A stretch of DNA of 64,000 nucleotides, from contig JASEGU010000004.1 in assembly GCA_030017835.1 (NCBI GenBank), positions 6,445-70,444 on the forward strand. Reading direction: 5' to 3'. The stretch comes from Actinomycetota bacterium. Its GTDB lineage: Bacteria; Actinomycetota; Aquicultoria; UBA3085; Oleimmundimicrobiaceae. The position numbers were made by a program, and so were the translations under genes. The notes below the pieces were generated by a model. It was not told where the DNA came from and made no database searches. It saw only the letters and a program-made list of their open reading frames with translations. Of the stretch, positions 25,653-41,337 are shown in pieces; the stretch's first letter is position 1, and each line of letters starts with the position of its first letter.

Positions 25653-27002
25653 TTGCAAGCAGACATCGCGGAGGCCTGGAAAGAGGCCGTAAAACAATTA
25701 AAGGCTGGGATGAGTGCTCCCATATCGAAGGCTTGGTTCGATAACACCTCGGCGGTTGATATGTCAAATGGTGTCGTCTTTATATCGGCTCCCAATAATT
25801 TCATCAAAGAGTGGCTCGAGACAAGACACGTCGACTCAATAAAAGAGACCCTGTCGGCTATCTTAAACGAGGATGTGCTCGTAAGCTTCATTTCTAAAGA
25901 GTTAGAAGGGGTCGCCACGTCGCCCAGGACCAAGATTCAATCAAAACCGCCAGAGACCGAGGCGAGGGGTGGGGCCGGCCTCTTAAATTCAAAATATACC
26001 TTCGAAGCTTTCGTGATCGGAAGCAGCAACCGGTTCGCCCACGCCGCCGCATTGGCCGTGGCGGAGCTTCCTTTTAAGGCTTACAACCCGCTGTTTATCT
26101 ATGGCGGCGTGGGCCTTGGAAAGACTCACCTGCTGCAGGCTGTCGGCAACTATGTCTCCCAGCATAACCGCGAACTTAAAATTAGGTATGTTTCGACGGA
26201 GAAATTTACCAACGACTTCATCAGCTCAATTGGAGATAGGGGCAAAATCTCTGGTTTTCAAAATAAATATCGCAAAGTTGATGTGTTGATGATAGACGAC
26301 ATCCAGTTTATAGCCGGCAAGGAGGCGACCCAAGAGGAGTTCTTTCACACATTTAATAATCTATATGAAGCGAATAAGCAGATGGTTATCACTAGCGACC
26401 GCCCACCAAAGGATATCTCAACCCTAGAAGACCGCCTTCGTTCGAGGTTTGAGTGCGGCCTCATCACCGATGTCCAGCCACCTGATCTGGAGACAAAGAT
26501 AGCCATTTTAAAGAGAAAGCTTAGCGATAACGACGTCGTCTCTTTCGAGGTTTTAGAGTTCATTGCTTCCAGGGTCCACTCGAATATTAGGGAGCTTGAG
26601 GGGGCGCTGACTAGGGTTCTTGCCTTTTCCTCCTTCACAAAAACCCCGATAGATATTAAGCTCGCCGAGGAGGTTTTAAGGAATATATTCTCAAACAAAG
26701 AGAGCCGACCGATATCGATTCAGGCCATACAGAATGAGGTCTGCCGCTTTTTTGGGATTTCAAAAACCGAGCTCGTCGGAAGCCGGCGGAGTCAGCCGAT
26801 TGTTTATCCTAGACAGATTGCTATGTACCTATCGAGAGAATTAACTGATATGTCTCTTCCAAAGATCGGCGAGGAGTTTGGTGGAAGAGATCACACAACG
26901 GTGATGCACGCCAATTTAAAGATAGAAAGGCTAATAAGCGAAAGGCGGGAGATATATAACCAGATTCAGGAGTTAATTAATAAGATAAAACAGAGATCTT
27001 AA
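25653..27002 (+). CDS. dnaA: chromosomal replication initiator DnaA
   Basis: AAA+ Walker A GGVGLGKTHLL, plus domain IV with the basic-loop/HTH C-terminus. Confidence 0.95.
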   Translation: MQADIAEAWKEAVKQLKAGMSAPISKAWFDNTSAVDMSNGVVFISAPNNFIKEWLETRHVDSIKETLSAILNEDVLVSFISKELEGVATSPRTKIQSKPPETEARGGAGLLNSKYTFEAFVIGSSNRFAHAAALAVAELPFKAYNPLFIYGGVGLGKTHLLQAVGNYVSQHNRELKIRYVSTEKFTNDFISSIGDRGKISGFQNKYRKVDVLMIDDIQFIAGKEATQEEFFHTFNNLYEANKQMVITSDRPPKDISTLEDRLRSRFECGLITDVQPPDLETKIAILKRKLSDNDVVSFEVLEFIASRVHSNIRELEGALTRVLAFSSFTKTPIDIKLAEEVLRNIFSNKESRPISIQAIQNEVCRFFGISKTELVGSRRSQPIVYPRQIAMYLSRELTDMSLPKIGEEFGGRDHTTVMHANLKIERLISERREIYNQIQELINKIKQRS

Positions 27003-27215
27003 TAACTCTAAGCCTGTTGATTATTTGTGTATCAATTATTAACAATTTTGGGATTTAAAAATTTCACAACTTTTATTAATAGTTCTAAATAATTTATTAG
27101 ATGTTTGTGAACAATTAAGAGACGGGGCAAGCTCTGTAATTAACAATTCAACAAGCTCTAATATTATTACTATTTTTATTTATTAATATATCAATCAATA
27201 CTAAGAGGTGTTTAA
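27003..27215. promoter_or_regulatory. oriC-type AT-rich dnaA-dnaN intergenic region (DNA-unwinding element plus degenerate DnaA boxes)
   Basis: About 25% GC over 213 bp, against about 58% for the surrounding window. Degenerate boxes TGTGTATCA (27026-34) and TGTGAACAA (27106-14). There are runs of TTATT/ATTAA. Confidence 0.55.
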
Positions 27216-28319
27216 ATGTTTATCACTTGTGAGCAGAAAGAGTTATTGGAAGAGATTCAAGTAGTTCAAAAGGCCGCATCCATCCGGAGCACCCTCCCCA
27301 TCTTAAGCGGCATACTTTTTAGCGCTTCGGCCGGCAGGCTACATCTTACCACCACCAACTTGGAATTATCTATACATTCCAGCCTGCCGGCCGAAGTCAA
27401 AGAAGAGGGATCTTTAGTCGTTCAGGCTCGCCTAATTGGAGAGATCATTAAAAACCTTTCTGATTTAAAAATAGAAATGTTTTTAGATTCCTCCACAAAC
27501 CAACTAAAATTAACCAATTCCAAGTCGGTCTTCAATATAAAAATCCTTTCGCCAGAGGACTTTCCAAAGTTTCCCACGGCCGAGTTGGACAATCAGTTCA
27601 CCATCAAGTCGGAAGACCTCTCTAACGCTATAAGACAGGCCATAAAAGCCGCCTCTATTGATGAGACTCGGCCCATCTTGACCGGCGTCCTTATTGTAGT
27701 AAATAAAAATAGGTTAAAGATGGTTGCCACCGACAGCTATCGTTTAGCCATAAAAGAGATCCCAATAATCAACAAAGAAGACGTCAAGATAAAGGCCATC
27801 ATTCCCTCAAGAACGCTCGGGGAGCTTCTTAAGATTGTCTCTGATGGACGGAGCGAAGTAGTGGTGGGAGAGATGGGAAATCAACTCGCCTTTAAGATTA
27901 AAAATACCACCCTGATAACTCGGCTAATAGAGGGGCAGTATCCAAACTATCAACAGATCCTCCCAGAAAAGTATGAGATGAATTTTGTGGTGGATCGAGA
28001 AAATCTTCTTGGCGCCGTAAAGAGGATATCCTTATTTACCCAAAGCAACTCTTTAATAAAAATGGCGGCAAGAGATGGCTCTCTTGAGCTCAGCGCCTCT
28101 GCTGCTGAACTTGGTGAGGCCAAAGAGGCAGTAGATTATAGGGGGACGGGAGACGGATTGACAGTGGCCTTTAATAGTCAATATCTGATCGACGGCCTTA
28201 GTAGTATTCAGGGAGAGGAGGTATCCTTTGATATGATAGACAACATGAAACCGACCTCAATCACAGGAGACAAGAAGGATGACTTCCTCCACCTCTTAAT
28301 GCCGGTTAGAACCGGATGA
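27216..28319 (+). CDS. dnaN: DNA polymerase III beta sliding clamp
   Basis: 367 aa, three-domain clamp, canonical position after dnaA. Confidence 0.9.
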   Translation: MFITCEQKELLEEIQVVQKAASIRSTLPILSGILFSASAGRLHLTTTNLELSIHSSLPAEVKEEGSLVVQARLIGEIIKNLSDLKIEMFLDSSTNQLKLTNSKSVFNIKILSPEDFPKFPTAELDNQFTIKSEDLSNAIRQAIKAASIDETRPILTGVLIVVNKNRLKMVATDSYRLAIKEIPIINKEDVKIKAIIPSRTLGELLKIVSDGRSEVVVGEMGNQLAFKIKNTTLITRLIEGQYPNYQQILPEKYEMNFVVDRENLLGAVKRISLFTQSNSLIKMAARDGSLELSASAAELGEAKEAVDYRGTGDGLTVAFNSQYLIDGLSSIQGEEVSFDMIDNMKPTSITGDKKDDFLHLLMPVRTG

Positions 28320-28355
28320 TAAAATATATTATTATATTAAAAAATAGGAAAAAGA

Positions 28356-29468
28356 TTGCATCTTTTTAGAGCAGAGCTCCTCAGCTTTAGAGGTCACAAA
28401 GAGGCTTCATTCGAGCCCATCCCTGGCATAAATGTGATAATCGGTGATAATGGCTGCGGCAAAAGCAACCCGCTAGAGGGAATCTTCGTCCTTATGAGAG
28501 GGAGGTCCTTTGGGACGAGCCAAGACGATGCTTTGATTCAACTCGGAGAGAGGGCGTCGGTAATTAGGGGGAGGTTTAAGGGAGAGAAGAGAGACTCTAA
28601 AATCGAAATGGGCATAAATGCTGACGCCGGAAAAGAGATTAGACTGAACGGCTTAAGGCTGGAGAAATTAAAAGATCTTAAGAGTTCTTTTGGAATAGTC
28701 ACCCTCTCTCCTGAGGATCTTAAGCTCGTCAAAGGTGGCCCCGAAGAGAAGAGGGCGCTCATGGATGAGGCTGGGGGGCCCTTGGCCCAAAATATGACCA
28801 TGCGAGGATGAGCCCTTTTAAGGTTTTAAAGCAACGAAACAACCTCTTAAAACAGATCAAATTTGGGAGAGCAGGCCCGCTCAAGCCCTGAGATATGGAA
28901 CGAGAGACCGATCATAACCGGAAAGAGGTTGATGGATGAGAGAAGAGAGACGGTTCAGCCTTTGAGCGAAGTCTGTCAAGATGTCTTCAATGAGATTTAC
29001 GGCCAGAGGCGCAGCCTGAGCCTAATGTGTTCGAACGAAATCTTTAAAAAAGACTCTCCGTCGAGGAGCCTCTCAAAGACCTCTTGGAAAAAGGGGGGGG
29101 CCGATGAGATTGAAAGGGGAACAAGCCTCATCGGCCCCCATAGAGACGACCCAACGATCCTTCTTGGGGGAAAAGAGGGGCCCAGGCCATATGTCTCCCA
29201 GGGCGAACAGAGGGCCATCAGCTTGGCCCTGAGGCTGGCCCACTATGAGCTCTTGTGTAGAGATGAACACGGGATGAACCTGTTTCTAATGGACGACGCC
29301 ATGTCGGAGATGGACGAGAAGAGAAGAGACAACCTCTTAAATTTCATCTCCGGGCTCAAACAGACCACAATCACCAGCACAAATCTCTACTACTTCAAGG
29401 ACGAGCATCTTAAAATGACGAACCTGATTGAAATGGGAGAAGGCGAGAGGAAGAGCAAGGCTTGTTGA
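28356..29468 (+). pseudogene. recF: recF disrupted by two compensating frameshifts (N-terminus and C-terminus in frame 0, middle ~100 nt in another frame)
   Basis: N-terminal Walker A GDNGCGKSN in frame 0. The middle segment …LGPKYDHARMSPFKVLKQRNNLLKQ… is in another frame. The C-terminal signature LFLMDDAMSEMD is back in frame 0. Frame 0 has three in-frame stops over 28809-28850. Shift sites are a G6 run at 28773-28778 and about 28855-28870. Confidence 0.7.
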
Positions 29469-29908
29469 GGGACATCAAGGATGTTTTACGAGACCTAATA
29501 TCCGACCTCAACATGGGCAAGCTGATGGAGGAGGCCAGGATCGTAAGGGGCTGGAGAGATATAGTCGGCGAGCACGTCGCCGAGAATAGCTCCCCAATCT
29601 CGCTTGTGCGCGGCACCCTCTTGATAGGAGCCTACAATTCAGCCTGGTCGAATCAGCTCAGCATGATGAGGACAGGCCTCGTGGAGGAGATAAACAGCCA
29701 CCTTGGCAGAGAGGTCGTAAAAGAGATAAGGTTCAAGCTGATCGAAAAGGCGAAGGAGGAGAGCGATGAGGCCGCCCCCGAAGAACGCACGAGTCTTTTT
29801 GGCGAGGGAGAGAAAAAGAAGATTCTTGGCGATCTCTTGTTAAATGTCGAGGATGCTGAGGTGAGAGAGAGCCTAAAAAGGGCCATTTTCCTAGATGATC
29901 AAAAATGA
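29462..29908 (+). CDS. DUF721 (DciA-like) protein
   Basis: Position between recF and gyrB, as Rv0004/YaaB. …RIVRGWRDIVGEHVAENSSPISLVRGTLLIGAYNSAWSNQL… matches the DUF721 pattern. Confidence 0.65.
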   Translation: MLRDIKDVLRDLISDLNMGKLMEEARIVRGWRDIVGEHVAENSSPISLVRGTLLIGAYNSAWSNQLSMMRTGLVEEINSHLGREVVKEIRFKLIEKAKEESDEAAPEERTSLFGEGEKKKILGDLLLNVEDAEVRESLKRAIFLDDQK

Positions 29909-29912
29909 TTAA

Positions 29913-31850
<1,938 letters not shown>

Positions 31851-31861
31851 GAGAATAATAG

Positions 31862-34327
31862 ATGTCATCACGAGCGCAGCTTTTTGGAAACAAAACAGAA
31901 CCGGTCTACATCGAAGAGGAGATGAAGCGCTCATACATCGATTACGCCATGAGCGTGATCGCCGGGCGTGCCCTGCCCGATGTGAGAGACGGCCTTAAGC
32001 CGGTCCACCGCCGCATCCTCTACGGCATGTACGATCTTGGCATGGTTCCGGGCAAGCCCTATATGAAGTGCGCCCGCATCGTAGGAGAGGTTTTGGGAAA
32101 GTATCACCCCCACGGCGACAGCGCCGTCTATGACGCTCTGGTTAGGATGGCCCAAGACTTCTCCTTGAGATATCAGCTCATCGATGGCCACGGAAACTTC
32201 GGCTCGGTCGACGGCGACAGCCCGGCCGCCATGCGCTATACCGAGGCTCGCCTCTCCAAGCCGGCCATGGAAATGCTGAAAGACATCAACAAAGAGACGG
32301 TCGATTTCGCCCCCAACTTCGATGAGACCCTGAGCGAACCGACGGTTCTGCCCTCGAGGCTTCCCAACCTCCTTATCAACGGCTCCTCGGGGATAGCCGT
32401 CGGCATGGCGACCAACATTCCGCCTCACAACATGGCCGAGGTCATCGATGCCGTCGTCATGCTGATCGATAAACCAGAGGCCGGCATAGAGGATCTGATG
32501 ACTCAGATTAAGGGACCAGACTTTCCTACCGGGGGACTCATCGTCGGCACGGCCGGCACAAAAGAGGCCTATCGGACCGGGCGCGGCAACGTGATTATGA
32601 AATCCAAAACCCACATCGAAGAGACGAAATCGGGAAAGCACAGGATCATCGTGACCGAGATCCCGTTTCAGGTCAACAAGGCGCGTCTGACCGAGAAGAT
32701 TGCCGAGCTCGCCAGGGAGAAAAAGATAACCGAGATAAGCGACCTGCGCGACGAGTCCGACAGGAGCGGCATGCGTCTGGTCATCGAGCTGAAGAGGGAG
32801 GCCGTTCCCAAGGTCGCCTTAAACAAGCTATTCAAATATACCCAACTCAAAACGACCTTCAATATCATAACGCTGGCCCTGGTCGACACGGCTCCCAAGG
32901 TCCTCAACTTGCTCGAGGCCCTGAAGTACTACCTCGACCACCAGAGAGAGATCATCGTTAGAAGGACGAGGTTTGATCTGGCCAAGGCTGAAGCCAGAGC
33001 CCACATTTTGGAAGGGCTTTTGGTTGCCCTGAACAATTTGGACGAAATGATAAAGCTTATCAAGTCGTCAAAGACGGTCGATATCGCCCGCTCAAGCATC
33101 ATGGAGCGCTTCTCTTTGAGCGAGACTCAGGCCCAGGCCATTTTGGATATGCGCCTACAGAAGCTGACCGGCCTTGAGCGCGAGAAGATAGAGACCGAAC
33201 ACAAAGAACTCCTTGAGGCGATCGCCGAGCTCAAAGCCATCTTGGCCGACGAGAAGAGAGTCTACGCCATCATCAAGAGGGAAATCCTTGAGATCAAGAC
33301 GAACTATCTCGACGAGAGGCGCACCAAGATAGTTCCGGCCGAGGATGACTTGGAGGAGGAGGACCTCATTGCCGAAGAGCAGATGATCGTCTCGATAACC
33401 AATTCGGGCTACGTCAAGCGCTTGCCCGTCGAGACCTACCGCCAGCAGCAACGGGGCGGCCGCGGGGTCATCGGCATGAATCTCAAGGACGGGGACGTGG
33501 TCGAGCACATGTTCGTCTCCTCAACCCACGATTACGTCCTCTTCTTCTCCAACGAGGGCAAGGTCTACCGGGTCAAGGTTCACGAGCTCCCCTTGGGCAG
33601 CCGCACATCCAAGGGGCAGGCCATCGTCAACATCCTTCCCTTTGGGCCGGGCGAAAAGATAGCGGCCGTCATCGCGGCCAAGGGTTTTGAGCAGAGCAAA
33701 TATATCATAATGGCGACCAAGCTCGGTCTGGTCAAAAAGACCGAGCTCAAAGAGTACGACACCGCAAGGCGTGGCGGGATAATTGGTTTGAACCTGAAAG
33801 AAAATGACGAGTTAATAGGGGTCAAGCTGGTAGATAAGGATGACAGAATAATCCTCGTCTCCGAGCTGGGTCAATCGATTTGTTTCGACGAGAGCGACGT
33901 TCGTCCGATGGGCCGGGCCGCCTCGGGGGTCAAGGGGATCACCCTAAATCTGGCCGACGTGGTCCTTGCGATGGACGTCGTAAGAAACCTCGGCGAGCTC
34001 TTCGTCGTCACCAATAACGGTTATGGCAAGCGGACACCGATCACCAAATACCCGGCCCAGGCTCGGGGCGGAAAGGGCGTTCGCACGATCAAAAAGTTTG
34101 AGAGCGGGGAAAGGCTGGCCGGGGCCAAGGTGGTAAGCGATGAGCACGAGATCATGCTCATCTCGGCCGAAGGCTTGGTGATCAGGACGGCGGCCAAAGG
34201 GATAAGCCGGATGGGCCGGAGCACCCGCGGGGTTAGGGTCATCAACCTTAAAGAGAACGATGTGGTGAGCACGGTCGCCAAAGTGGCCAGCGCCAGGGCC
34301 TCAGAGGAAAACGGGGATGGAGTCTGA
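31862..34327 (+). CDS. gyrA: DNA gyrase subunit A
   Basis: Active-site Tyr region, QRDR-like [14 protein letters not shown], and C-terminal beta-pinwheel repeats. Confidence 0.95.
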
Positions 34328-34760
34328 AAAAAAGGAGAGCCGCCCCAGGCCCTTTGAGGTTATAGAACATACGGCTGATGTCGGGATAATCGGCTACGGC
34401 GGGGACCTAAAAGAGGTTTTTGAAAACACCGCCATCGGCATGTTCAGTCTAATTACAGAACTTAACGCCGTTTCAAAAGATCTTGAGATTCAAGTGGAGG
34501 TCGAAGCGGAAGATGTTGAGGGACTGATGGTGGCCTGGCTTAACGAATTGATCTATCTCTTCGAGACCAAGGGGGTTCTATTTAAAGAGTTCGACATCCT
34601 GGAGCTCAGCGAAGAGGGGCTAAGGGCCGTGGCCCGCGGCGAGGAGTTAAATCCTATCAAACATGAGATCAAAACGGAGATAAAAGCAGCCACCTATCAT
34701 ATGCTCAAAGTGGAGAGCGAAAAAGAACGCTTAAAGAGCCGAGTCATATTTGACGTTTAG
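34317..34760 (+). CDS. archease (RtcB activator/chaperone)
   Basis: [16 protein letters not shown] … ATYHMLKV … VIFDV is the archease signature and C-terminus. Confidence 0.85.
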
Positions 34761-34850
34761 CCCAGTAAAAAAAGGGAGGCGGTTGCAATCAAGGGCATCG
34801 AAAAGATCGGCGAGTATTGCTACAGAATCCCCAAAGAGACCCGAAGCGAC

Positions 34851-36230
34851 ATGTTGGTCGACGGGATAATATTCTCCGACGAAAGCCTTTTTGCAACGGA
34901 CGAATCGTCTAAGGCGCTGGAGCAGGTGGCTAACGTCGCCACCCTTCCCGGAATAGTCAAAGCTTCCTTTGCTATGCCCGATATCCATTGGGGATATGGC
35001 TTTCCCATTGGCGGGGTGGCCGCTGTGCGAGAAGAGGACGGCTTCATTTCGCCAGGCGGGGTTGGCTTCGACATCAGCTGCGGGGTCAGGCTCCTGAAGA
35101 CGTCCATGATTGCAAGCGAGATAGAGCCCGATCTAAAATCCCTTATGCACGAGCTCTCCCGAAACATCCCCAAAGGGCTTGGGCGCAAAGGAAAGATCTC
35201 GCTTAACCAGAGCGAGCTCGAAGAGGTGCTGGACAAGGGGATCGAATGGGCTCGAAAGCGGGGATTTGCCAGTAAAGACGAGACGAATCGCATCGAGGAG
35301 AGCGGGCGGCTGGCCGGTGCAGATCCTGGCGCGGTCAGCAAGAGGGCCTTCGATCGAGGCGCTAGTCAGTTAGGCACGCTCGGCTCGGGCAACCACTTTT
35401 TAGAGGTGCAGGAGGTGACCGAGATTTTTGATTCGGCCAGCGCCAAGGCTTTTGGAATATTTAAAGGTCAGCTTATGGTCATGATCCACTCCGGCTCAAG
35501 GGGCCTTGGTCATCAGGTCTGCACCGACTACGTCAAGGTGATGGACGGGGTGGTCAAAAGAATGGGCCTTACCCTGCCAGACCGCCAGCTCGCCTCCGCC
35601 CCCATCGCTTCACCTGAGGGACGCAATTACTATGGAGCAATGGCGGCTGCGGCCAATTATGCCATGGTCAACAGGGGGCTTCTGGCCTTCTGGGCCAAAG
35701 AGTCCTTCGAGAGCACCTTCTCGGCGACCGCCAAAGAGATGGGCATCGAGCTTCTCTACGACGTCTCTCACAATTTGGCCAAATTCGAAGAGCATGTGGT
35801 GGACGGCAAGCAGATGAAGCTATGTGTTCACCGAAAGGGGGCCACCAGGGCCTTTGGGCCCAGCCTCTTGCCCAAAGATTCTCCCTATAAAGAGATCGGT
35901 CAGCCGGTCATGATCCCTGGGGACATGGGGCGAGCCTCCTACGTATTGCTTGGGACGGAGGAGTCAGAAGAGAGGGCCTTCAGTTCGACCTGTCACGGGG
36001 CGGGGCGCGTCATGAGCCGCACCCAGGCCAAGAAGAGCATCGGGCTGGACCAGTTGAGAAAGGACCTCGAAGAGAGGGGAGTCATCGTCTTGGCCGGGCA
36101 GAAATCAACCCTGGCCGAAGAGGCTCCGGGCGCCTATAAAGACGTCGATAGGGTGACTCTGGTTTGTGAAGGTGCCGGCCTCTCTAGGCGAGTGGCCAAG
36201 CTGCGGCCACTTGGCGTGATAAAGGGCTAG
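34851..36230 (+). CDS. rtcB: RNA-splicing ligase RtcB (3'-phosphate/5'-OH RNA ligase)
   Basis: …LPGIVKASFAMPDIHWGYGFPIGGVAAV… plus the conserved His/Cys metal ligands. The first canonical start (ATG 34851) removes about 21 RtcB-homologous residues that are encoded in-frame from 34788. See findings. Confidence 0.8.
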   Translation: MLVDGIIFSDESLFATDESSKALEQVANVATLPGIVKASFAMPDIHWGYGFPIGGVAAVREEDGFISPGGVGFDISCGVRLLKTSMIASEIEPDLKSLMHELSRNIPKGLGRKGKISLNQSELEEVLDKGIEWARKRGFASKDETNRIEESGRLAGADPGAVSKRAFDRGASQLGTLGSGNHFLEVQEVTEIFDSASAKAFGIFKGQLMVMIHSGSRGLGHQVCTDYVKVMDGVVKRMGLTLPDRQLASAPIASPEGRNYYGAMAAAANYAMVNRGLLAFWAKESFESTFSATAKEMGIELLYDVSHNLAKFEEHVVDGKQMKLCVHRKGATRAFGPSLLPKDSPYKEIGQPVMIPGDMGRASYVLLGTEESEERAFSSTCHGAGRVMSRTQAKKSIGLDQLRKDLEERGVIVLAGQKSTLAEEAPGAYKDVDRVTLVCEGAGLSRRVAKLRPLGVIKG

Positions 36231-36332
36231 GGAGCTTGGCCGCTCGGGATAGAAAAAATTAAACAGAACGCTAAGAAGTGTTTGATATATTTTAGTTTGC
36301 TGGTTAAAATAATGAGGCTAGATTTTGAGAGC

Positions 36333-36409
<77 letters not shown>

Positions 36410-36510
36410 TTTGAGAGAAGAGGCTATAACGCAAAAGGCGCGCAGAGCATATTTGGCGCCTTTGTTAATGGAGTCTCTTTGGGCCTTCTCTTAAGGCCGA
36501 TTGGCGAGTT

Positions 36511-38588
<2,078 letters not shown>

Positions 38589-38668
38589 CCTTCAAGAATA
38601 ACTTATTCTATCAGATAGAAAAAAAATCCAAAAGGAGAAATGAGGTCCTTTTTAATGGGGCGTAGCCG

Positions 38669-40069
38669 TCATTCGCTCTCTTTAAGGGCCTCTTTTAGCA
38701 CGAGCTTTGCCAAGGGAGCCGAAACCCTGCCACCTTGGCCCCCATTCTCTACCAAAACGGCGACCGCAACCCTTGGGCGGTCGGCTGGGGCAAAGCCCAC
38801 GAACCAGCCGTGAGGCTCGCCCTTGGCGAGCTCGGCCGTTCCCGTCTTTCCGGCCACCAGGACTCCGCCCACTCTGGCGGCCGCGGCCGTTCCGCTCTTA
38901 ACTACCTCGACCATCATCTCGGAGACGGCCGCGGCCGCCATAGGCCCTATTGGCCGGCCAAGTTCTTTTGGCTCGGCCTTAAAGATCGATTCCCCGCTCG
39001 GCCTCAATATCTCCTTGACGAGAAAGGGCTTCATCATGCGGCCGTCGTTCGCGATCGCTGAGGCGCAGAGGGCCATCTGAAGCGGGCTGACAAGCAGCTC
39101 TGCCTGGCCGACGGCGCTCCAAGCCAGCTCGACCTCGTCCATCTCGGCTGCCTTTGGAATTCGACTCTCCTTGACGGCCAGCTCGAAATCGATCTTCTCA
39201 TTGAAGCCGAACCGCTCCGCGTAGTCGACTAAGCCCTTGGCTCCCAAGTCGAGACCGACCTGAGCAAAGACGGTGTTGGCAGAGAGGGCAAAGGCGCTTT
39301 TTAGGGAGAGCGTGGAGTAGTCCTTCTTATCATAATTTGAAACGATGTTTCCCCCAACCTTAAGTTCGCCGGGGGCCGGATAGACTGAGCCCAAGGTGGC
39401 CTTGCCGGAATCCAGAACCGCCGCCGTGCTCAGCATCTTAAAGGAAGAGCCGGGAGGGTAGAGACCCTGGGTGGCTCGATTTAGAAGAGGTGAAGAGGGG
39501 TCATCTATCAAGGTAGACCAGCTATCGTCAAGCAGCATCGGATCGAAGGTCGGGCTGGTGGCCATGGCCAGGATCTCGCCCGTCCTTGGGTCTATGGCAA
39601 GAATCGCTCCCACCTTGCCCTCTAGAGCCGCCTCTGCGACCTTCTGGACGGGAAGCCGGATCGAGAGGACGACATCGTTTCCGGGCGGGTCGTTTCCGGC
39701 CAGCCGATCGAAGAATTCTTGGGCCGTATCATCGCCCGATCTTGCCAGCAGATAGTCGTTAAAGGCGAGCTCGATGCCGGAGCGGCCATACTTGATGCTG
39801 TTGAAGCCGATGACGCTGGAGGCCGTCTCGCCAAGAGGATATAGCCTCTTGAAAGACCCGTTAGAGGCGACACTCTCGGCAAAGACGGCCCCGTCGGCCG
39901 AGAGTATCCGGCCCCGCTCGACCTGAGCCTCTTCGGCTAGAGCCCGCCGGTTGGCGGGACTGGACAATATTCTTTTGGCTGCAAAGGCCTGAAGATATGA
40001 GAGATTCAAGATTATAAGGATGAAGGAGAGGGAGAAAAAGAGCCCCATCAGCCTAAGTCGCCTATTCAT
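38669..40069 (-). CDS. pbpA: penicillin-binding protein 2 (class B transpeptidase, PbpA-like)
   Basis: SxxK (STFK-like GSSFK), SxN and KTG(T) motifs. Position between rodA and pknB. Confidence 0.85.
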   Translation of the reverse strand: MNRRLRLMGLFFSLSFILIILNLSYLQAFAAKRILSSPANRRALAEEAQVERGRILSADGAVFAESVASNGSFKRLYPLGETASSVIGFNSIKYGRSGIELAFNDYLLARSGDDTAQEFFDRLAGNDPPGNDVVLSIRLPVQKVAEAALEGKVGAILAIDPRTGEILAMATSPTFDPMLLDDSWSTLIDDPSSPLLNRATQGLYPPGSSFKMLSTAAVLDSGKATLGSVYPAPGELKVGGNIVSNYDKKDYSTLSLKSAFALSANTVFAQVGLDLGAKGLVDYAERFGFNEKIDFELAVKESRIPKAAEMDEVELAWSAVGQAELLVSPLQMALCASAIANDGRMMKPFLVKEILRPSGESIFKAEPKELGRPIGPMAAAAVSEMMVEVVKSGTAAAARVGGVLVAGKTGTAELAKGEPHGWFVGFAPADRPRVAVAVLVENGGQGGRVSAPLAKLVLKEALKESE

Positions 40070-41337
40070 TCGCTCAAGGCCTCCTTGGGAGCCGAGATCA
40101 CGAGCAACAGGCCGAGCAAGATGAAGTTGGAGAGGATGGAGCTTCCTCCATAGCTCATGAAGGGCAGGGTTATGCCGGTGAGCGGTATCAGCTTGGTGGT
40201 GCCGGCCATGATTATACAGGCCTGAAGCGAAAAGATGGTTATTAGCCCAAAGGCGAGATATTTTCCGAAATCATCCCGGGCTCTTAGGCTGATCTTAAAG
40301 CCCCGATATGCCATGAGCATATAGGTCAGAACGACGGCCACTCCACCAAGAAGCCCAAGCTCTTCGGCCAGAGCCGAAAAGATAAAATCGGTATGTACGG
40401 CCGGAATTAGGGAGGGATAGCCGTTTCCAAGCCCGGATCCGAAGACGCTCCCGCTCGATACGGCAAAGAGGGACTGGACGATCTGATAGCCCTTGCCATC
40501 CGGATCGGTCCAGGGATTGAGCCAGATGTCGACCCGGGTCTGGATGTGAGTGAATATGAAATAACAGAATATGGCCCCGGCGGCAAAGAGAAGTGCCCCC
40601 GTGATGATGTAGGCGGGTCGGCCTGTGGCGACATAGATCATGGCAAGGAAGGTCCCAAAAAAGAGGAGAGAAGATCCGAGATCCTTTTCAAGGATCAGAA
40701 TGACGAGCGAAATCAGCCACATCATGATGAGTGGGCCGAAGTGTTTTATGTCGGGAATCTCCACCCCCTTAACTTTTCTTTTGGCCAGAGAGAGGAGCTC
40801 TCCCCTATCCTTCAGGTAGGCGGCCAGAAATACTATTATGCAGAGCTTGGCGATTTCCGCCGGCTGAAAGGAGAGCGGGCCGAGCCTCAGCCAGAGCTTG
40901 GCACCGTAGATCTCGCGGCCGAAGAAGGCCGGCGAGAGGAGGAGCATTATCGAGATGAGGGCAAAGACGTATTTGTAGTTCTCGAGCTCACGATATGGGA
41001 CTCTCTCGAAGAAGAGCAGAGTCAAAGTCATGGCCAGTATCCCGACGCCCGCCCAGAGGAGTTGGATCCAGACCAGGCCCGGCTTGAGCCGATAGATGGC
41101 GAGCGTCCCGAGCGATGTCAAGGCGAGGGCGAGCGGGAGCATAAAATAATCCGCCCTGGGAGCGAAGAAACGGCAAGCCATATGGGAGGCGACGGCCAAA
41201 AGGAGAAAGATCGAAGTGAAGAGGAGAGAGCCGGGCGAGATAAAACCATGGGTGGCCAGGTCCAAAGAGATGGTTCCCACGAAGGTGAAGGCCACCACCA
41301 AGATTAACAGGCGAGCCTCTACGTTTCTCGCCCTCAC
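40066..41337 (-). CDS. rodA: SEDS family peptidoglycan glycosyltransferase (RodA/FtsW)
   Basis: 10-TM FtsW/RodA/SpoVE family. C-terminal motif …MSYGGSSILSNF…. Confidence 0.85.
   Translation of the reverse strand: MRARNVEARLLILVVAFTFVGTISLDLATHGFISPGSLLFTSIFLLLAVASHMACRFFAPRADYFMLPLALALTSLGTLAIYRLKPGLVWIQLLWAGVGILAMTLTLLFFERVPYRELENYKYVFALISIMLLLSPAFFGREIYGAKLWLRLGPLSFQPAEIAKLCIIVFLAAYLKDRGELLSLAKRKVKGVEIPDIKHFGPLIMMWLISLVILILEKDLGSSLLFFGTFLAMIYVATGRPAYIITGALLFAAGAIFCYFIFTHIQTRVDIWLNPWTDPDGKGYQIVQSLFAVSSGSVFGSGLGNGYPSLIPAVHTDFIFSALAEELGLLGGVAVVLTYMLMAYRGFKISLRARDDFGKYLAFGLITIFSLQACIIMAGTTKLIPLTGITLPFMSYGGSSILSNFILLGLLLVISAPKEALSE

Follow-up and report, generated by a model that had tools for sequence, protein, structure and literature searches.

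The window analysed here is a stretch of 64,000 nt from an Actinomycetota bacterium (GenBank assembly GCA_030017835.1, contig JASEGU010000004.1, positions 6,445 to 70,444 of the forward strand; positions below are counted from its first base), in which the gene for the RNA ligase RtcB directly follows that for its activator archease and lacks an ATG, GTG or TTG at the place where its coding sequence appears to begin. Most likely this is an otherwise ordinary archease-rtcB operon in which rtcB has a non-canonical AUC start codon that is conserved in one lineage and mis-annotated in GenBank. We estimate a probability of about 0.62, on the basis of comparative sequence analysis, that the AUC at 34788 is the start codon of rtcB and that the start given in GenBank lies 21 codons too late.

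The archease gene ends with GTT TAG (stop at 34758-34760), which is followed by a C, and from 34761 onwards the same frame is open through 30 codons up to the ATG at 34851. The initial annotation of this DNA had described archease and RtcB as lying in one frame with a single TAG between them, with no canonical RtcB start before this ATG and with a Shine-Dalgarno site (AAAGGGAGG, 34771-79) 8 nt ahead of an in-frame ATC at 34788. All of this was confirmed in the sequence, in which the frame contains zero ATG, GTG or TTG codons between 34761 and 34850. The accompanying claim that 22 codons align to the RtcB N-terminus needs correction, as the open stretch (and the peptide that was quoted for it) comprises 30 codons, of which the last 21 do align. 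The first nine codons (PSKKREAVA) are the spacer and hold the Shine-Dalgarno site, and the alignment to solved RtcB structures and homologues begins only at about 34785-34797. A start-less stretch of 30 codons is not rare by chance; the observation is real because alignment shows the last 21 codons to be homologous to the RtcB N-terminus in each of the relatives.

From genome and metagenome scans, 155 archease-to-rtcB junctions were collected and the codon equivalent to 34788 was located in each. A canonical start is present within -12 to +6 codons of this position in 153 of the 155 junctions, and the two exceptions are the window and the contig of one close relative (L001). The closest relatives with a canonical start (L002-L004, three assemblies with 81% amino acid identity) read GAGGAGG TGCTTTTT GTG ATT AAG GGC. 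Here a normal GTG start is directly followed by the Ile codon, archease does not share the frame of rtcB and a further stop intervenes. Two further loci (L005 and L014) begin with ATG ATC, where the window lineage has GCA ATC. Since relatives begin with NTG followed by an Ile codon (ATT or ATC), the ATC of the window is best understood as the former second codon, and the comparison indicates that the ancestral rtcB began with NTG-ATY and that the NTG disappeared in the common lineage of the window and L001. The distance from the archease stop to the ATC-equivalent position has a median of 23 nt across the junctions.

Two side observations concern the junctions as a group. The three frame classes are uneven (77, 52 and 26 junctions, in counts that ignore phylogeny), and the archease stop is TAG in 95 of the 155 junctions (loci L001-L168), compared with 17 of 57 genes in the window. 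This excess of TAG at archease likely arises because, in very short spacers, a TAG followed by G or A adjoins or belongs to the Shine-Dalgarno site of RtcB.

This close relative (P0001) was the only one in a search of about 15 billion proteins. The rtcB gene that encodes it lies on a Logan contig from a separate assembly (L001, run SRR23882321) and shares 93% of its nucleotides and 94% of its amino acids with that of the window. The junction there reads TAG CTC AGC AAA AAG GGG GCG GTC GCA ATC AAG GGC. No ATG, GTG or TTG occurs nearby in any frame, and a Shine-Dalgarno site (AAGGGGG) is located exactly 8 nt ahead of the ATC. The two junctions differ by a 3-nt indel in an A/G run that lies 5' of the Shine-Dalgarno core, and the distance between the Shine-Dalgarno site and ATC is therefore untouched.

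The existence of this second genome bears directly on two further readings, that the missing start arose from an error in base calling or assembly at 34785-34790 and that rtcB was recently inactivated and is a pseudogene. Both would be conceivable for a metagenome-assembled genome, the more so as on the same contig the frame of recF changes twice within about 110 nt and a kinase gene lacks the stop of its orthologue. However, L001 comes from another run, differs in 7% of the bases and nevertheless has an identical GCA ATC, and a sequencing error in the window is therefore not the cause of the missing start. The initial annotation had also allowed for a corrected sequence with ATG or GTG at 34788, but L001 keeps the ATC. 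A dead gene is equally hard to reconcile with the pattern of substitution. The RtcB genes of the window and L001 differ by 69 synonymous and 30 non-synonymous changes, which gives a dN/dS of 0.116 over 1440 nt (gyrA 0.10, archease 0.19), and since the loss of the start is common to both genomes this purifying selection acted after it. In addition, all catalytic residues of RtcB are intact. Error or inactivation is thus extremely unlikely, and the comparison indicates that rtcB stayed functional after losing its canonical start. The suggestion of a mutated start codon, made in the initial annotation, thus holds in the evolutionary sense, with NTG-Ile in relatives and GCA ATC here, but not in the sense of an error or a defunct gene.

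The same pair of genomes indicates where constraint begins. In the 63 nt from the ATC to the ATG only three positions differ (4.8%; two synonymous and one non-synonymous difference) and the rest of rtcB has diverged by 7%, whereas in the spacer upstream of the ATC 5 of 24 aligned bases differ (21%) in addition to the 3-nt indel (spacer against 63-nt segment, Fisher p = 0.034). Constraint sets in within a few bases of the ATC, the last difference in the spacer being at 34784. Further carriers were sought in several ways. The 90% protein cluster of RtcB has two members only, a degenerate DNA pattern for the clade-specific N-terminus had no match in the JGI metagenomes, and locus scans based on archease and on RtcB for further carriers returned only relatives at <=64% identity.

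The protein encoded from the ATC has all the features of an RtcB ligase. The match to PF01139 is full-length (1-426 of 426, E 7e-171), and the PDB chains 1UC2, 7LFQ and 2EPG match with E values of about 1e-159, aligned from residue 9-13 of the window protein to the C-terminus. D95, C98, H203, H234, H328 and H403 occupy invariant columns in a 24-sequence alignment that includes the RtcB of the window; in the numbering of the Pyrococcus horikoshii enzyme, the metal-binding and guanylylation residues are Asp95, Cys98, His203, His234, His329 and His404. The 21 N-terminal codons align to the RtcB chains in the PDB and to all 153 other junctions, and the hairpin that they specify, ahead of the conserved GM(R/L)V motif, is encoded at all 155 loci. 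An AlphaFold model built with 24 sequences predicts a beta-hairpin (strands 5-8 and 11-14) with a pLDDT of 87-92 for residues 1-20. According to this model, a start at Met-34851 would remove a structural element of the RtcB fold.

An exact look-up showed that the PGAP annotation in GenBank nevertheless uses that start. It lists the archease as MDI6799445.1 and the adjoining RtcB as MDI6799446.1, with 459 aa from Met-34851. If this were right, the hairpin would be missing from the ligase and the homologous codons upstream would be a remnant undergoing decay. The ATG at 34851 is the first canonical start in frame, which is the one PGAP chose, and gene callers picked the same Met in several other metagenome-assembled genomes. 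In those genomes, however, a canonical start is present upstream, so the short calls are errors. The corresponding residue (Met-22 of the 480-residue protein) is invariant in alignment A1; an ATG is found at relative position +21 in nearly all loci, where it encodes an internal residue, and Met-34851 is both invariant and internal in all relatives. The comparison of orthologous junctions that the initial annotation had proposed thus gave a clear result, as the orthologues do not start at the equivalent of Met-34851. Moreover, no Shine-Dalgarno site precedes this ATG (-2.9 kcal/mol), the 21 codons before it are intact (4.8% nucleotide divergence with neither indel nor stop, against 21% in the spacer), and the residues that would be skipped are a confidently predicted beta-hairpin within the fold that is aligned in PDB chains. 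Translation from the GenBank start is therefore considered unlikely.

Other RtcB proteins of 459-460 aa (P0043-P0051 and P0099-P0101) were considered as further carriers of the feature but were rejected, since loci L085-L088 have an upstream canonical ATG or TTG. At these loci (L085 1920-2001, L086 1232-1322, L087 1875-2001 and L088 397-532) RtcB was called from an internal Met with a length of 459-460 aa, and a canonical ATG or TTG with a Shine-Dalgarno site is present about 20 codons upstream of the called Met. Start mis-annotation thus appears, from these loci, to recur across the RtcB family, the short calls being gene-caller errors.

Initiation signals were compared by calculating the duplex energy between the 3' tail of the 16S rRNA and the 18 nt upstream of each candidate start. 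This gave -12.5 kcal/mol for the ATC of the window, -11.9 kcal/mol for that of L001 and -15.2 kcal/mol for the GTG start of L002. Proxy gene starts in the window have a median of -7.5 kcal/mol and only 1.5% of them are as strong as the ATC site, whereas 61% of internal ATGs equal or exceed the value of the ATG at 34851. No near-cognate codon other than the ATC at 34788 is suitably spaced from the Shine-Dalgarno site. A formal competitor is the GTT at 34782 (GTC in L001), which could initiate in the way known from Streptomyces sigR. A GTY codon is present in both genomes two codons upstream of the ATC, its product (M-A-I-K-G...) would be near orthologue length and one residue longer than that of L002, and for an actinobacterium initiation at GTC and GTT is on record (PMC5472188). 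This GTT, however, is separated from the GGAGG core by only 2 nt, which does not leave enough room to position it in the P-site, since the optimal spacing between a Shine-Dalgarno site and the start is 5-9 nt. In addition, GUY matches AUG at one position, whereas AUC matches AUG at two, and the third base of the GTY codon differs between the window and L001. Initiation at this codon hardly seems credible. An out-of-frame TTG at 34783 combined with a frameshift was also tried as a start and was rejected, as that TTG is absent from L001.

In the minimum-energy folds of both junctions (window 34774-34831 and L001 2378-2434) the G-run of the Shine-Dalgarno site pairs with a downstream UCCC(C), enclosing the ATC. 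The partner UCCC of the window is at about 34828-34831. The fold does not exceed shuffled controls in stability, and it is therefore a hint only that such a hairpin could be opened by a ribosome reaching the end of archease at its TAG.

The shared frame raises the possibility that the archease UAG is read through, in a programmed or leaky manner, and that the functional form of RtcB is an archease-linker-RtcB fusion of about 637 residues. The genes are in frame across a single TAG, no further stop lies between them in either the window or L001 despite the 3-nt spacer indel, and in both genomes the TAG is followed by C; UAG-C is the weakest UAG termination context in Escherichia coli. Three of the five spacer substitutions are at third codon positions, but with so few sites this is not significant (P = 0.21). 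The layout itself, however, is ordinary. Archease and rtcB are in frame at 26 of the 155 junctions, in 25 of these the archease stop alone separates the genes, and at 23 of these 25 junctions the start codon is normal. By itself the shared frame thus carries little information, since it is common and mostly accompanied by ordinary starts. TAG is not reassigned either, because it ends 17 of the 57 long ORFs in the window, including rtcB and gyrB, and no suppressor tRNA was found among the nine tRNAs of the 64-kb window. In its folding the junction RNA does not stand out from shuffled sequence (z about -0.4 in both genomes), and it has no Rfam match, the only matches being the downstream tRNAs. 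A chimeric query of archease and the RtcB N-terminus retrieved only two two-domain proteins (P0121 and P0122), both of which are frameshift artefacts. These proteins, of 256 and 391 aa, contain Archease and RtcB Pfam domains but come from indel-rich assemblies, have out-of-frame Arg-rich stretches and are no genuine fusions. Furthermore, divergence in the spacer is about four times as rapid as in the codons next to it, a strong Shine-Dalgarno site at conserved spacing has no role under read-through and gives RtcB an independent initiation signal, and a permanent tether between archease and RtcB would not be obviously useful. Therefore the fusion that the initial annotation had listed among its readings found no specific support, and it seems very unlikely that it is the functional RtcB. 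What still speaks for it is limited to the frame kept in spite of the 3-nt indel and to the C behind the TAG in both genomes. A mixed scheme can also be imagined, in which read-through of UAG-C at a useful rate yields an archease-RtcB fusion beside free archease and AUC adds a small supply of RtcB. That both products are made in this way has only a slim chance of being correct, and an equally slim one attaches to the idea that enzyme and activator are coupled by translational recoding and that the frame was kept across the 3-nt indel for that reason.

AUC initiation, the remaining one of the three possibilities that the initial annotation raised without choosing among them, is thus favoured by the recurrence in L001, the strong Shine-Dalgarno site and the conserved N-terminal codons, while the use of the codon itself is what we infer from them. 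In the mechanism that we propose, the ancestral NTG immediately preceding the ATC had already disappeared when the lineages of the window and L001 separated, and the strong Shine-Dalgarno site AAAGGGAGG remained ahead of the former second codon. Ribosomes would be recruited by this site or would arrive from the archease TAG 27 nt upstream, and the initiator tRNA would read the AUC at 34788 to give a 480-residue RtcB that starts with fMet and includes the N-terminal hairpin. Shine-Dalgarno sites are known to enhance re-initiation after a nearby upstream stop (PMC2268962), and initiation at the AUC is probably helped by translational coupling or re-initiation after archease. In E. coli, AUC initiates at roughly 1-2% of the level of AUG (0.02-3% depending on the construct) and the N-terminal Met was found by mass spectrometry (bioRxiv 10.1101/063800). 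In the present lineage it would probably be inefficient and sensitive to initiation factor 3 (IF3), keeping RtcB low relative to archease. The contribution of coupling and a regulatory purpose of the weak codon, either to hold RtcB below archease or to place it under IF3 control, are steps that we infer.

Several points weigh against initiation at the AUC. Firstly, AUC is a weak start codon in E. coli and the output might be very low. Secondly, archease and RtcB have remained in frame in the two carriers despite a 3-nt indel, as read-through would require and initiation would not. Thirdly, the GTT of the window (GTC in L001) two codons upstream offers a formal alternative start, although it is 2 nt from the Shine-Dalgarno core. 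Fourthly, the feature is known in two genomes only and the comparative statistics rest on few sites. Lastly, with the frame changes of recF and the lost stop of the PASTA kinase gene on the same contig, local sequence quality or gene decay may, with a small probability, be involved.

If the AUC start is real, MDI6799446.1 is truncated by 21 residues of the RtcB fold, and this would be another case of a start misplaced by pipelines that allow ATG, GTG and TTG alone. It would also be a natural AUC-initiated gene outside infC, with a partner, archease, that keeps a normal start. The weakness of the start may then set the ratio of ligase to activator or create a dependence on IF3, as the GUC start does for SigR and RsrA. 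The reach of the finding is limited, as the feature is confined to one shallow uncultured lineage.

The coordinates of the junction and of the flanking genes are collected in Table 1. The archease match to PF01951 is full-length (1-136 of 136, E 2e-44) and its NF001617 score is 128.7 bits against a cutoff of 126. The stop of gyrA overlaps the archease start (ATGGAGTCTGA), so that gyrB-gyrA-archease-rtcB form a single tightly packed operon. The order gyrA-archease-rtcB also occurs in L002-L004 and L085-L087, among which are several metagenome-assembled genomes of Actinomycetota (L002, L085-L087).

Table 1. Features of the gyrA-archease-rtcB region, with positions in the 64,000-nt window.
Feature	Position	Strand	Basis or remark
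gyrA	31862..34327	+	ORF list; Pfam DNA_topoisoIV and DNA_gyraseA_C
archease, activator of RtcB, 147 aa	34317..34760	+	Pfam PF01951 and NCBIfam NF001617
Intercistronic spacer, 27 nt	34761..34787	+	Stop-free, in frame with both genes
Shine-Dalgarno site AAAGGGAGG, core GGAGG 34775-34779	34771..34779	+	8 nt upstream of ATC
ATC, proposed AUC initiation codon of RtcB	34788..34790	+	Conservation in L001, distance from the Shine-Dalgarno site
RtcB N-terminal beta-hairpin, 21 codons IKGIEKIGEYCYRIPKETRSD, left out by the GenBank annotation	34788..34850	+	PDB chains, homologues, AlphaFold
ATG, GenBank start of MDI6799446.1 (459 aa)	34851..34853	+	Conserved internal Met in the GMRVP/DMLVD motif
RtcB RNA ligase as proposed, 480 aa, stop TAG 36228-36230	34788..36230	+	Pfam PF01139, PDB matches

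The region 25653-41337 of the window is a chromosomal origin region of classical actinobacterial type, with dnaA, dnaN, recF, gyrB, gyrA, tRNA-Ile(GAT), tRNA-Ala(TGC), pknB, pbpA and rodA. The archease-rtcB pair is inserted between gyrA and the tRNA genes, and pknB-pbpA-rodA are on the opposite strand. Two genes of this region have unusual structures. recF (28356-29468, + strand) is split, as its first frame is left near a G-run at 28773-28778 and regained near 28885, with about 110 nt between them in which a conserved RecF motif (KVLKQRNNLLKQ) is read in another frame. The double change is due either to two frameshifts that compensate each other or to a local error of assembly. The PASTA Ser/Thr kinase gene (36522-38588, - strand) has GCT at the position of the TAA stop (...EGG*) of the L002 orthologue. 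Its ORF extends by 77 codons and runs antisense over the tRNA-Ala gene (36511-36586, + strand), which could be a stop-loss extension or an error.

The junction can be compared with several known systems. The gene pair itself is that of bacterial and archaeal archease-RtcB operons, with which it shares short spacers and retained catalytic residues, but 153 of the 155 junctions use ATG, GTG or TTG and this lineage does not. The A1 protein of phage Qbeta is an example of programmed stop-codon read-through. Such read-through fusions resemble the present case in that the downstream frame continues in frame past a single stop, but the rtcB junction lacks a stimulatory structure, linker conservation and natural fusion homologues, and it has a strong ribosome-binding site (RBS) of its own. 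Likenesses are also found among genes with non-canonical starts. infC begins with AUU in E. coli and with AUC in Streptomyces (the ATC start of Streptomyces infC is stated in the sigR paper, PMC5472188), and, as proposed for rtcB, a gene that is normal in other respects has an AUH near-cognate start, which software restricted to ATG, GTG and TTG routinely mis-annotates (PMC5472188). The start of infC, however, is ancient, widely conserved and part of a demonstrated IF3 autoregulatory loop, whereas the rtcB AUC is confined to two genomes of one shallow lineage. In sigR, a GTC start behind an extended RBS is repressed by IF3 and sets the SigR:RsrA ratio (PMC5472188). This too is an actinobacterial two-gene operon in which a non-canonical start behind a strong RBS governs the ratio of partner proteins, but the codon is GUC, it is genetically proven and it is conserved in 32 of 34 species, while a role in stoichiometry is only proposed for rtcB. 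The ebpA gene of Enterococcus faecalis has an ATT start 9 nt after its RBS, but annotation had erroneously placed its start at an ATG 120 bp downstream (PMC4447247). Both ebpA and, on the proposed reading, rtcB have an AUH start about 9 nt after the RBS and an annotated downstream ATG without an RBS (120 bp in ebpA, 63 bp in rtcB), the use of which would delete a needed N-terminal element. They differ in that the ebpA start was verified by stop-codon insertion and an ATT-to-ATG swap, and in that the element is a signal peptide in ebpA and a structural beta-hairpin in rtcB. With an AUC start, rtcB would join the known class formed by infC (AUU/AUC), sigR (GUC) and ebpA (AUU).

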